From Halorutilales archaeon Cl-col2-1 (GTDB taxonomy: Archaea > Halobacteriota > Halobacteria > Halobacteriales > Afararchaeaceae), in NCBI GenBank assembly GCA_041891055.1, contig CP169074.1:736001-800000 (forward strand): a stretch of 64,000 bases of DNA, read 5' to 3'. The position numbers were made by a program, and so were the translations under genes. Within the stretch, counting starts at the first letter, position 1. Every line of letters begins with the position of its first letter. Below are positions 59,851 to 63,918 of the stretch, piece after piece. Under the pieces are notes generated by a model. That model was not told the DNA's origin. It saw nothing but the letters and a program-made list of their open reading frames with translations, and made no database searches.

Positions 59851-62265
59851 TCACCGAGTATCAAGCGCGTCGGCGACCTCGACCGCCCTCACGGTCTCCT
59901 TCACGTCGTGTACTCGGAGTATGTCGGCTCCCCTGAGGGACGCGACGACGTTCGCGGCTAAGCTGGCTTCGAGACGTTCCTCCTTCGGGAGGTCGGTGAC
60001 TCCACGCAAGAACGACTTCCTCGAACAGCCGATCAGAACCGGATAGCCGAGTGACGCGAACTCGTCGGTGCGCGCGAGAACCTCGGCGTCGCCTTCCTTT
60101 CCTTTCCCGAATCCTATACCCGGATCGAGTATTATCTGTTCGTCGTCTATCCCCGAACGCCGTGCCTGTATGACCTTCTCCGAGAGACGGTCTATGACGT
60201 CGTAGACGACGTCGTCGTACTCCGGCTTTGTCCCGGGATCTACGGGTACGTTGACCGAGTCCATCACGACGACTCGGCAGCCTGTCTCGGCTACGACCTG
60301 CCTCATCCCGGGGTCGTCGAGCCCGGTGACATCGTTTACTATCTCGGCTCCCGCCTCGACAGCGCGCCGAGCGACCTCGGGATGTCTCGTGTCTACTGAT
60401 ATCGGAACGTCGACGTCTATCTCGTCGATCACGGGGACGACACGGTCAGCCTCCTCCTCGGGTGGCACGGGTTCGGCTCCGGGACGTGTCGACTCACCCC
60501 CTACGTCGATTATGTCGGCCCCTTCCTTGACTATCTCGTAAGCCCTCTCGACTGCGTCTTCCCTTGCGGCGTACCTTCCTCCGTCGTAGAACGAGTCGGG
60601 CGTGACGTTTAGTATTCCCATGACCTTCGTCTCCGAGTCGTCCTCACCTCTGTCTTCGAGAGCCGGGCTCAGTCTGTGACGGAGATATCCCAGGGTTCGG
60701 TCGTCTTGGGTTATCTTGTCGTACTCTGAGACCGAGGCGGTTAGACGTAGGTCGGTATAGGTCTGAGACCGTGTCTGTGCCCCGGAAGACGGTGACGAGA
60801 CGGAGGAGTGAGACGGCGACACCTCGGCGTCGGAGTCGGAGGCAGTCTGTCTGAGAGCCCTTTCCTCGTTAGGCGTTGTCTCTCTGAGTAAGACGGACGG
60901 ATGTACTGCGTCTCTCGCCTCGGAGATGTCTCGGATGACTCCGTCTGCGTCCTCGACCGAGTCGAAGACCCTCGAAGCCGTATTCGTCTTCCAGAGAGTC
61001 CTCGCCTCGCCGACTGTGAAGATAGATCCCGTCACGAGTACAGCGTCGTCGTCGCCGGCTGAGTCGACGGCTTGCCTGACAGCCTCACGTACGTCTCGGT
61101 GGACTTGTGACTCGACCCCGGCTTCGTCGAATACCTCGGCTACGACTGAGGCGTCCTCTGAACGAGAGGTCGACGGCTCACACGCATAGACACGCCGAGG
61201 CTCGGCTTCGGCTATCTCCGACACGGTTCGGCGTAAGTCCTTGTCCGACATAACACCGAAGACGACGTCGAGGCTCTCGTACTCCAGTGTCTCTTTCGCC
61301 TCTTCGAGTGTCTCGACTGCTGCCTCCGCACCCGCGGGGTTGTGTGCGGACTCAAGTACAACGACGGGGTCGTACTCTACCGCCTCGAAACGTCCGGGCC
61401 AGTCGGCGCGTTCGAGTCCCTGCCTGACCGCGTCGTCGGAGACACCGAGACGGTCGAGGAGACCTAAAGCGACCGCGGCATTCCTCGACTGGTGTTCGCC
61501 CGCTAAGGGTAGACTGACGTCTTCGAGCCGTCTGCGCGAGGATTCGAGACTCAAGGTCTGACGCAGACGTCTGTCGATCTCTCCCGGCTCATATCCGAGA
61601 TCCTTGTCGACGACGCTCAGGCTCGCGTCTCTGTCGTCAGCCATCTCACGTATGACACCGAGCGGATCACCCCGCGCTCCCGTCGAACAGAAGCCGTCCT
61701 CGGGTATTATGTGTCCTATCTCCCACGCTATCTCTTGGGTGTCGTCTCCGAGAACGTCTGTGTGTTCGAGAGACACGGAGGTTACAGCCGCGGCGTCGGC
61801 GTTACACAGGCTCGTGATGTCGTATCTCCCGCCGAGACCCACCTCTAAGACTGCGTAGTCGAGGTCTCTCCTTGCGAACTCGTAGAAAGCCATCACTGTC
61901 GTAGTCTCGAAGAATGTCGGAGCGTCGCCGTCTGCGACCATCTCGTCTACGAGTGGTCTGATCTCCTCGACGAACTCCGCCATAGCCGACTGTGTCATCT
62001 TCGTGCCGTTGATACGTATCCTCTCGCCGAGGTCGACCATATGTGGAGAGGTATAGAGACCGACGTCGTAGCCGTCACGCCGGAGACACGACTCGACCAT
62101 ACGTGCCGTACTTCCTTTCCCGTTCGTTCCCCCGATCTGTATACCGTCGACCTCCTCGTGGGGATCTCCAAGAGCTTCGAGGAGACGTTCCGCCCTCTCG
62201 AAGCCCTCCTTCATCCCGAACCTCCTGAGCCTGAATAGATACTCGATCGCCGCGTCGGGTTCCAT
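59851..62265 (-). CDS. folP: FolC-linker-FolP fusion (folylpolyglutamate synthase / dihydropteroate synthase)
   Basis: FolC GTNGKGS, YTSPH, EVGLGGRYD, WPGRFE; FolP MGILNVTPDSFYDGG, GGESTRPG, DPGIGFGK, SRKS, RVHDV. Confidence 0.94.
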   Translation of the reverse strand: MEPDAAIEYLFRLRRFGMKEGFERAERLLEALGDPHEEVDGIQIGGTNGKGSTARMVESCLRRDGYDVGLYTSPHMVDLGERIRINGTKMTQSAMAEFVEEIRPLVDEMVADGDAPTFFETTTVMAFYEFARRDLDYAVLEVGLGGRYDITSLCNADAAAVTSVSLEHTDVLGDDTQEIAWEIGHIIPEDGFCSTGARGDPLGVIREMADDRDASLSVVDKDLGYEPGEIDRRLRQTLSLESSRRRLEDVSLPLAGEHQSRNAAVALGLLDRLGVSDDAVRQGLERADWPGRFEAVEYDPVVVLESAHNPAGAEAAVETLEEAKETLEYESLDVVFGVMSDKDLRRTVSEIAEAEPRRVYACEPSTSRSEDASVVAEVFDEAGVESQVHRDVREAVRQAVDSAGDDDAVLVTGSIFTVGEARTLWKTNTASRVFDSVEDADGVIRDISEARDAVHPSVLLRETTPNEERALRQTASDSDAEVSPSHSSVSSPSSGAQTRSQTYTDLRLTASVSEYDKITQDDRTLGYLRHRLSPALEDRGEDDSETKVMGILNVTPDSFYDGGRYAAREDAVERAYEIVKEGADIIDVGGESTRPGAEPVPPEEEADRVVPVIDEIDVDVPISVDTRHPEVARRAVEAGAEIVNDVTGLDDPGMRQVVAETGCRVVVMDSVNVPVDPGTKPEYDDVVYDVIDRLSEKVIQARRSGIDDEQIILDPGIGFGKGKEGDAEVLARTDEFASLGYPVLIGCSRKSFLRGVTDLPKEERLEASLAANVVASLRGADILRVHDVKETVRAVEVADALDTR

Positions 62266-62383
62266 ACTCAGAAGAGGGTAGTCGTTGCTAAGGCAGTTAC
62301 GGTGTCGGTGTCAGTCTGAGTGTCGTCGTAGTCTCACGGATATACTACAACTGTATGATAAAATACAAAAATTATCGATCATA

Positions 62384-62514
62384 ACAGTAATTCGAGGCGG
62401 CCGGCATCGGCAGGCTATGGACGAGGTGATACCTCGACTCCTTGAGGGCTTCTCCAACCTGCCCACGAAAGGCCAAATTGCCGCCTCCGGGATCTCTGAC
62501 GATCCCTGTACTGT
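62384..62514. ncRNA. Candidate structured RNA in the folCP/purD divergent intergenic region
   Basis: Five to six complementary segment pairs, mostly nested (see findings); strand uncertain. Confidence 0.5.
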
Positions 62515-62637
62515 GTTGGAGACGTAGTCCCAAAAAGATGGGGATTAAGTTTCAGGATAGCATCATTTTAAATTATTAGGTATCGATACGTCTGCGTACA
62601 ACCACCAGATTGATTTAGGCGACAACGTATCTCGCGT

Positions 62638-63918
62638 ATGGACATACTCGTAGTCGGATCGGGCGGACGCGAGCACGCGATCACACGTGCAGTGTCGGAG
62701 TCCGAGAAGGACGTCAGTATCTACGCTGCTGTGACTAACAGGAATCCCGGGATAGAAGAACTCGCCGACGGCATAAGGGAGATCGAGACGGAAGATCCCG
62801 AGGCTGTCGCCGACTACGCCGAGGAGGTCGGTGCCGAGATCGCTGTCGTGGGACCCGAGTCACCGCTTCAGGCGGGAGTCGTCGACGCTCTTGAGGAGAG
62901 AGGTATCTACGGCTTCGGTCCCAGAAAGGAGGAAGCGCGCATAGAGACCGACAAGGCGTGGGCGCGTGAGTTCATGCGCCAAAACGGTATATCCGGCACA
63001 CCCGACTTCGCCGTCTTCTCAGACGTCGACGAGGCGTGTGACTACGTCGACGAGTACGACGGAGACCTGGCTGTGAAGCCTCGTGGACTCACCGGAGGAA
63101 AAGGTGTGAGGGTCACAGGAGACCAGATCACCAAGGAAGAGGCGAAGGAGTACATACGTGACTCGGGCTACGACGAGTTCGTCTTAGAGGAACGTCTCGT
63201 CGGAGAGGAGTTCACTCTCCAGGCTTTCGTAGCCGACGGCGAGGTACGTCCGACACCCGCCGTCCAGGATCACAAACGCGCCTACGAGGGCGACGAAGGA
63301 CCCAACACTGGTGGAATGGGAAGCTACAACGACGCGGGGTATCTCCTGCCTTTCATGACTCAGGAGGAGTACGACGACGCACTCTCTATAATAGAGGAGA
63401 CCGTCGACGCCCTCCCCGAGTATAAGGGGATACTCTACGGACAGTTCATGCTCACCTCGGAGGGTCCTAAGGTCGTCGAGTTCAACGCACGTTTCGGCGA
63501 CCCCGAGGCTATGAACGTACTCCCTATACTCGAAACCGACTTCGTCGATGTACTCGAAGGCGCGCGAGACGGTGACCTGCCTGAGGTCGAGTTCGAGAAG
63601 AAGGCGACTGTCTGTAAGTACGCCGTACCAGAGGGTTATCCCACGAACCCCGAGAGCGGCGCGCGTATAGAGATAGACGAGGGCGACACCGATGCACTCG
63701 TCTACTACGCGAGCGTCGACAAGAGGGACGACACACTCTACACCACGACCTCTAGGTCTCTCGGGGTCGTTGGCGTCGACGGGACGATAGAAGGAGCCGA
63801 GGAGATAGCCGAGGACGCCCTCTCGATACTCGGAGACGGACTCCGTGTGAGACACGACATAGGCAACTCCGAACTGATACAGAGACGTATCGACCACATG
63901 GAGAGTCTGAGACAGTAG
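62638..63918 (+). CDS. purD: Phosphoribosylamine--glycine ligase
   Basis: GSGGREHA, VGPE, GGKGV, QDHKRAYEGDEGPNTGGMG, EFNARFGDPE. Confidence 0.97.
   Translation: MDILVVGSGGREHAITRAVSESEKDVSIYAAVTNRNPGIEELADGIREIETEDPEAVADYAEEVGAEIAVVGPESPLQAGVVDALEERGIYGFGPRKEEARIETDKAWAREFMRQNGISGTPDFAVFSDVDEACDYVDEYDGDLAVKPRGLTGGKGVRVTGDQITKEEAKEYIRDSGYDEFVLEERLVGEEFTLQAFVADGEVRPTPAVQDHKRAYEGDEGPNTGGMGSYNDAGYLLPFMTQEEYDDALSIIEETVDALPEYKGILYGQFMLTSEGPKVVEFNARFGDPEAMNVLPILETDFVDVLEGARDGDLPEVEFEKKATVCKYAVPEGYPTNPESGARIEIDEGDTDALVYYASVDKRDDTLYTTTSRSLGVVGVDGTIEGAEEIAEDALSILGDGLRVRHDIGNSELIQRRIDHMESLRQ

Follow-up and report, generated by a model that had tools for sequence, protein, structure and literature searches.

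What is the GC-rich, strongly folding island that lies between a folate gene and a purine gene of Halorutilales archaeon Cl-col2-1? The window analyzed here, the whole 64,000-nt stretch of contig CP169074.1 (assembly GCA_041891055.1, forward-strand positions 736,001 to 800,000), holds a 372-nt gap (62266–62637) between two divergent genes: folCP (59851–62265, minus strand), which encodes an 804-aa protein with Mur-ligase domains and Pterin_bind, and purD (62638–63918, plus strand). A first-pass annotation had given the same gap length and gene identities, which we confirmed by coordinates and domain checks. It had also proposed a nested and possibly switchable RNA at 62384–62514, acting either as a one-carbon cis-regulatory RNA or attenuator or as an independent sRNA of ~150 nt. 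In our judgment it is reasonably probable that the island is a stand-alone gene for a structured sRNA, encoded on the plus strand as one member of a family that is absent from Rfam 15 and patchy in Halobacteriales. The family itself exists: its helices covary, its loop nucleotides are invariant, and its neighbors vary by locus.

The island had been described as GC-rich between AT-rich flanks, and the difference in composition is real (GC of 0.61 for 62400–62499 and 0.40–0.41 for the flanks). What needs correction is which part stands out. This genome has a size of 2.06 Mb, a GC content of 55%, and a coding average of ~0.61, so it is the flanks that are unusual rather than the island.

Every pairing listed in the first-pass annotation is present where it was placed. 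Folding of 62375–62525 gave −63.5 kcal/mol on the plus strand (z −4.35) and −63.2 kcal/mol on the minus strand (z −3.66), and on each strand 0/200 dinucleotide shuffles reached that stability. The outermost helix, P1, pairs ACAGTA (62384–62389) with TACTGT (62509–62514) at a probability of 0.93; P2 pairs GAGGCGGC (62394–62401) with GCCGCCTC (62480–62487); P3 pairs GGCAGG (62409–62414) with 62458–62463; and a side hairpin, GGGATC-TCTGAC-GATCCC (62489–62506), forms at a probability of 1.00. All four reach pair probabilities of at least 0.92 on both strands. In single-sequence ensembles the fold differs between the strands in the center only, where the hairpin at 62422–62436 has a probability of 0.00 on the plus strand and 0.95 on the minus strand. 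These ensembles are well defined and show no sign of a bistable or two-state switch, which leaves the suggestion of a switchable structure unsupported.

As a genome background, 4423 intergenic windows of 151 nt were folded, with the MFE adjusted for GC. The island's best window ranks 183 of 4423, and 75/625 intergenic loci hold a window at least as stable. Two dispersed hairpin-repeat families (27 + 15 members) make up 42 of the 78 most stable intergenic loci; the island was a singleton in an all-against-all BLAST of the most stable loci. The fold of the island is real and beyond shuffle expectation, yet it is not exceptional for this genome.

Known RNA families did not account for the element. 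A cmscan search against Rfam 15, a check that had been proposed along with the RNA, was run at E up to 10 with 2-kb and 271-nt queries and matched no family; the scores were at chance level only (Pinc at 13–16 bits and SNORD50 at 17.6 bits in the AT block). Eleven loci with relatives gave no hits at all, and no member of the family was matched by Rfam. At Rfam gathering thresholds, the window contains nothing beyond two tRNAs.

By BLAST, the element is single-copy in its own genome and has a copy outside it in one sister species only, identical over 62343–62578 except for T62512C. Divergence between the two species is 12% at third positions genome-wide and 7.7% in intergenic DNA, and 16% of 111 intergenic 131-nt windows differ by at most one nucleotide. 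The locus falls within a low-divergence tract, so its near-identity in the sister species carries little information. The folCP–purD region (~60766–64100) is 97–100% identical in the sister species, against the genome-wide third-codon-position figure given above, and the tract may be the trace of a recent exchange. The sister species also carries one additional unit of a CGGTGT hexamer repeat upstream of folCP (62288–62311; 6-nt indel at 62299). A weak promoter-like site for folCP at the leaderless position (62311–62296, 4.1 bits) coincides with this repeat or is immediately downstream of it.

More distant relatives were approached with a series of covariance models. BLAST of the gap DNA against 40 relatives returned chance GC-rich matches only. 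The first model, R1, was built from two near-identical sequences (the window and sister copies) and found just two weak matches in 150 genomes; in the nearest family it found nothing (0/9 genomes), and with filters off all scores at 18 loci were ≤11 bits. A 17-mer allowed up to one mismatch hit unrelated sites, apart from one relative already found. The better R1 match, in genome G141 (22 bits), is not significant by itself: blastn gives E values of 0.24–0.54 at 450 Mb, its own fold has a z of −0.7, none of 18 genomes from its own family contains a match, and it has no synteny with the window locus. It has in common with the window a 19-mer, a 10-mer, and an upstream AT-rich block, and nhmmer with the island plus the AT block as query assigns it an E value of 0.0057 at 450 Mb. 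Model R2, which includes G141, led to a 31-bit match in a third family (genome G063, E of 5e-5 per genome). BLAST from that match retrieved a copy in a congener with 80% identity and a second copy in the same genome with 75% identity.

The strict pattern TCGGYANGCYNTGR-N35-65-CCACGAAAG occurs at 7 sites in 6/401 genomes of the order, one of them belonging to a fourth family, and the reversed control occurs at 0. Model R3 was built from A5, a plain MAFFT alignment of 7 copies (6 distinct rows) made with no structural guidance, and was run on 151 genomes. It detected two copies in one genome of a further family and one each in two others (27.7–36.6 bits), as well as a second copy in the source genome (G000:C1:1922533–1922658, minus strand, 30 bits) that is also present in the sister species. 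Two R3 matches at 22 bits, inside an 843-aa ORF, were false, and a working cutoff of ~27 bits was adopted because of them. In Haladaptatus, members occur on four plasmids at 5 places; R3 matches 3/3 of the retrieved plasmid loci at 27.7, 23.0, and 17.2 bits, the latter two under the cutoff. Model E-values are rough, and the distant members (27–37 bits) depend on model-fitted alignments. Under strict filters, R3 found nothing in 132 genomes of the phylum's other families. Phage, viral-contig, and plasmid collections searched with the window copy returned nothing, nor did a plasmid search with a second-family copy as query. A lack of conservation in relatives had been named as grounds for abandoning the proposal; copies are in fact present in other Halobacteriales families.

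The relatives allowed covariation to be measured, as had also been suggested. Five helices were mapped onto A5 (P2, a 2-bp extension, P3, P4, and an apical hairpin), and 95.1% of 162 cells form standard pairs, compared with 37–49% when the partner is slid by 1–3 columns; this paired percentage is inflated because the structure was derived from the same sequences. Compensatory counts set against shuffles are not inflated in this way. In A5, 16/27 pairs changed on both sides, where shuffles give 7.1 ± 1.8 (0/500 reach 16) and slid controls give 2–4. An independent RNAalifold run on A5 recovered P2, P3, P4, and the hairpin, with 17/30 predicted pairs compensatory. A6, an alignment of 13 rows fitted to the model, has 92.3% of its cells paired and 20/27 pairs compensatory (0/500 shuffles). 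Both alignments are small. The helices P2, P3, TGGA/TCCA, and 62422–62436 of the earlier proposal are thus backed by covariation in relatives.

Compensatory changes are distributed over the helices. P2 has 7/9 such pairs in A5 and 9/9 in A6. P3 occurs as GGCACG/CGUGUC, GGUAUG/CAUACC, and GGUGGG/CCCACC, and P4 occurs in relatives as UGGG/CCCA and UGAG/CUCA. The apical hairpin, with 5/6 pairs compensatory in A5, is in the RNAalifold consensus and absent from the plus-strand single-sequence MFE. It reads CGAGGU-GAU-ACCUCG in the window's copy and ACCGAG-UGAUG-CUCGGU, UGCGGGU-GAC-ACCCGCA, and GUGGAU-GAC-AUCCAC elsewhere.

The core is a long irregular hairpin. It begins with P2, the family's closing helix, followed by an asymmetric internal loop (CGGNN on the 5′ side, GAAAG plus 6–8 nt on the 3′ side); past the loop come two pairs, a 3-nt CAC bulge, P3, P4, and an apical hairpin of the GUGAY type with a variable insert. 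In the window's copy, J1 (62402–62408) reads CGGCA and then UC and contains the invariant CGG. P4 pairs TGGA (62418–62421) with TCCA (62453–62456) and encloses the apical hairpin (62422–62436) and the variable region (62437–62452), which is 16 nt long here and 29–34 nt long in relatives. The element CCACGAAAG (62463–62471) comprises the last P3 base, the CAC bulge, and GAAAG; it and the CGG are identical in 13/13 aligned members. P1 is a copy-specific outer helix that is not kept in relatives, and the side hairpin is likewise copy-specific and absent from relatives. The invariant internal loop and CAC bulge probably constitute a binding site for a protein or small ligand, and the RNA would be expected to act in trans or within an RNP.

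Gene neighborhoods bear on whether the element belongs to an adjacent gene. In G063, the first copy is flanked by an SDR gene and a convergent thermosome gene, and the second by an AAA_5 gene and a convergent Lrp gene. The G088 copy lies between a DUF4382 gene and a co-directional Usp gene, the G283 copy between a tetrapyrrole methylase gene and a convergent archaeosortase-like gene, and the G141 copy among LamG-domain genes, while plasmid regulator genes flank the Haladaptatus plasmid copies. The neighbors are different at every locus, and a stand-alone gene is therefore favored. The copies do not recur in the 5′ leaders of genes with related functions, and at least three face a convergent gene. 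The divergent folCP|purD junction is itself confined to the source genus: folCP was found near purD at 0/80 loci of named haloarchaeal genomes (within 3 kb) and 0/80 metagenome loci (within 2 kb). Given the absence of an Rfam match, this count of 0/160, and relatives beside unrelated genes, the one-carbon cis-regulatory element or attenuator that had been suggested lacks support. The alternative offered with it, an independent sRNA of ~150 nt, is supported by a covarying family with unrelated neighbors. A functional tie of the RNA to folCP or purD would then not be expected.

The plus-strand transcript could instead serve as a cis-acting leader or attenuator of purD, reading through weak T-runs while the loop senses a ligand or protein, although we regard this as unlikely. 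The element is co-directional with purD, and T3 and T4 are the sole T-runs between them, but purD has its own promoter-like site (62599–62616; 8.1 bits with a tRNA-derived matrix, 5.3 bits with a protein-gene matrix) at a distance to the start typical of leaderless genes in this genome. Genome-wide, as in Haloferax volcanii, start codons show a leaderless signature, with AT content peaking at −34 to −25. An H. volcanii study gives 72% of transcripts as leaderless, calls long structured leaders untypical, and also reports some genes with both a leaderless and a long-leader transcript (PMC4983044), which a purD leader would resemble. For two other copies, a gene of the same orientation (Usp, LamG) is found ~100 nt to 1 kb away; the downstream genes, however, are functionally unrelated, at least three copies face a convergent gene, and in two copies a T5 or T6 comes right after P2′, which leaves no space for an expression platform. 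Furthermore, the gap upstream of purD has a median of ~105 nt at 75 other loci, and R1 and R2 found nothing at the 133/160 purD loci searched (80/80 genome and 53/80 metagenome loci). More speculatively, and with little probability in our estimation, the CGG/CAC-GAAAG loop could be the aptamer-like pocket of an orphan ligand- or protein-sensing RNA that moves among haloarchaeal chromosomes and plasmids and that, in the source genus, was captured upstream of purD, where read-through would couple purine synthesis to the signal.

Returning to the stand-alone sRNA, its promoter-like sites and putative ends point to the plus strand, which is probably the strand read. The best promoter-matrix sites of the gap are both on this strand, at 62360–62375 (9.5 bits, tRNA-derived matrix) and 62361–62372 (7.7 bits, protein-gene matrix). 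They fall in an AT-rich promoter-like block, GATAAAATACAAAAATTATCGA (62357–62378), ~16–37 nt upstream of P2. Matrix sites of 7.7–9.8 bits precede both copies in this genome, and an AT-rich block lies 30–45 nt upstream of P2 on the model strand, equivalent to the window's plus strand, in 7/7 core copies; the opposite side is GC-rich in at least 3 of the 7. At the other end, three copies are followed by T-runs, in agreement with T-stretch termination as measured in H. volcanii (PMC7237163): T5 immediately after P2′ in one, T6 in the second copy of the source genome, and T4 in a third. On the plus strand the window copy has only T3 and T4, 27–52 nt downstream, which are weaker than the T5 and T6 seen elsewhere. 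Together with a terminator-like hairpin (62528–62543), T3 (62541–62543) and T4 (62566–62569) mark a possible 3′ end at 62528–62569. Transcription would thus be driven from the AT-rich block on the plus strand, start near 62385–62400, and finish within 62530–62570, yielding an RNA of roughly 140–185 nt. The promoter matrices predict a start site at 62395–62405, at or inside P2, which speaks against this reading. Just upstream of the window copy (62381–62387), and of one other member, is the sequence ATAACAG.

The first-pass annotation had placed the RNA on the minus strand, as an sRNA ending at the T5/T4 of 62360–62371 or as a folCP attenuator or riboswitch. Several features are compatible with that orientation. 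T5 and T4 lie just past the structure on the minus strand, 62520–62366 folded as minus strand has a z of −4.37, and the central hairpin is part of the minus-strand MFE. T62512C would make an A·C mismatch in P1 on the plus strand but keeps a G·U pair on the minus strand, which favors the minus strand for P1, and wobble counts barely separate the strands (8 G·U versus 3 A·C in A5, 17 versus 14 in A6). The minus-strand motif GAAACTTAAT (62544–62553) and the A/T tract (62360–62371) are present as described; as a promoter, however, GAAACTTAAT is outside the top sites of both matrices and reaches ~3 bits by hand sum with the protein-gene matrix. The best minus-strand site (62578–62567, 7.5 bits) is followed by T5 within ~10 nt. 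On that side, an AT-rich block is absent from at least three relatives, and in one relative the upstream block is A6 when read on the opposite strand and hence cannot be a terminator there. For a folCP attenuator in particular, the gap upstream of folCP is ≤190 nt in 22/28 other haloarchaea and 42–52 nt in the nearest family, and no Rfam riboswitch matched. With promoter-like blocks upstream on the plus strand in all members, the RNA is probably encoded on the strand opposite to the one first proposed, and we consider the minus-strand readings improbable.

A further possibility, to which we give a low probability, is that the family marks, as RNA or DNA, a small mobile or accessory element whose structure is kept for mobility or maintenance. 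The window copy would then have been carried in as a passenger at the time the folCP|purD junction arose. The distribution is patchy (6/401 genomes by the strict pattern), copies are non-syntenic even within one genus, three genomes have two copies, several copies are on Haladaptatus plasmids, and the junction is unique to the source genus. Such spread may be compatible with a mobile or accessory origin. Yet terminal repeats, target duplications, and a transposase were not seen, and a tnpB fragment lies within 1 kb at 1/8 loci only, on the other strand. Phage and viral collections gave no match, and plasmids gave none for the window copy; moreover, genomes have few copies each, and these retain the promoter-like block. 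A match to a MITE family had been named as an outcome that would dispose of the RNA, but similar copies are few and the genome's 49-nt repeat profile did not match.

The window copy also stands outside the genome's hairpin-repeat family. These small repeats (ATC-NNN-GAT core) resemble the island in being intergenic, hairpin-rich, and top-folding, and the side hairpin GGGATC-TCTGAC-GATCCC has a similar core. A profile of the 49-nt repeat unit, however, matches 65 genome sites (nhmmer), none of them in the gap, even when the gap is searched alone at E 100. The repeats form arrays with a ~49-nt super-unit, for example at G000:C1:259753–259943, 914893–915403, and 1826786–1827297. Perfect 7-bp hairpins number 325 in intergenic DNA, which makes up ~12% of the genome, versus 438 in coding DNA.

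HgcC and TnpB-associated RNAs are alike in being structured archaeal RNAs of ~130 nt that are patchy and multi-copy. The element itself is unmatched by HgcC, is on the other strand from tnpB, and has no tnpB at 7/8 loci. In another family's genome, a tnpB fragment has a sub-threshold HgcC match (33 bits; gathering threshold 50) at its 3′ end (L291:501–621). This match resembles a TnpB-associated RNA and is separated by ~1 kb from a member of the present family, which is encoded on the opposite strand.

A small protein gene is very unlikely. The candidate, an acidic ORF of 36 codons inside the RNA (62417–62527, plus strand) transcribed as a leaderless message, has GC by codon position of 0.58/0.44/0.69 (genome, 0.61/0.40/0.66) and, at the leaderless distance, a promoter-like site whose 5.8 bits are equaled or exceeded at 21.5% of true starts versus 3.1% of decoy ATGs; T62512C is synonymous in its frame. 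Against this, its ATG is CTG in the 5 other core copies, core length differences of 16, 19, 15, 18, and 15 nt break the frame, and covariation occurs without frame conservation. Searches for related peptides were negative in 199 other genomes, where the top candidate was antisense inside a 330-aa ORF, and among proteins of 44–140 aa in a set of 5.8 billion. In coding score the ORF ranks at the 7th percentile of real genes, and the protein atlas recognition of 1348 is under the 2300 typical of most real families. The ORF is thus probably no conserved protein gene.

Other candidates were rejected. A gene remnant was set aside after tblastx of the gap against 188 loci and the own genome gave nothing below E 0.01, and a replication origin, a K-turn, and a Shine-Dalgarno mimic were discarded because their defining motifs were absent by eye. 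H/ACA guide RNAs carry an ANA box directly 3′ of the lower stem; here, ACA follows P2′ in 1/7 core copies, no C/D pair occurs at guide spacing (by eye), and no Rfam guide family matched.

The stand-alone sRNA gene can be compared with several known systems. Intergenic sRNA genes of H. volcanii, as presented in PMC4983044, are alike in occupying an intergenic gap and in having a promoter-like block, T-stretch ends, and no tie to neighbors. The present RNAs differ in keeping both a covarying secondary structure and their loop nucleotides in several families. No correspondence to any named haloarchaeal sRNA could be made, and a limited set of haloarchaeal riboswitch, sRNA, 9-mer-motif, and structured-RNA literature yielded no description of the family. 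ZTP (pfl), THF, and other Rfam riboswitches are similar in their folate and purine neighbors, for the source genus only, and in an aptamer-like invariant internal loop. The element has, however, no covariance-model match to ZTP, THF, THF-II, PRPP, or purine riboswitches at E up to 10, its relatives are not beside folate or purine genes, and several copies have no downstream gene or end in T5/T6. In PMC8241225, the fluoride riboswitch of Thermococcus kodakarensis is described as the sole natural riboswitch of archaea to have been determined experimentally. It is likewise an archaeal structured RNA with conserved unpaired nucleotides; unlike the element, which lacks a consistent downstream gene, it is the 5′ leader of fluoride-export genes and is in Rfam.

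Few archaeal RNA families rest on conserved structure rather than on a transcript from one species. Strict loop conservation, covariation, two copies in a 2-Mb genome, and plasmid copies make this family a target for a new RNA–protein or RNA–ligand pair in haloarchaea. The locus also illustrates how gene neighborhood in a single genome can mislead on function, as the apparent folate and purine link does here.

Variants of the family add some detail. The second copy in the source genome (L310:1501–1626) is diverged and lies outside the window, ~270 nt from a tRNA-Gln gene. Its P2 is AGGGGAGC/GCUCCUC(A), its P3 is GGUGGG/CCCACC, and it contains the invariant CCACGAAAG; upstream is a promoter-matrix site of 9.8 bits, and a T6 run is located 15 nt past P2′. 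The source and sister versions of this copy are distinguished by a compensatory G-C to A-U replacement in the apical hairpin and, in P2, by a C-to-U substitution that still allows a G·U pair. In members from the third family (L301–L303 and L311), a further hairpin, GCGCC...GGGCGC, is conserved on the 5′ side, and the motif ATAACAAAG is present upstream; the RNA in that family may therefore be ~190 nt long.
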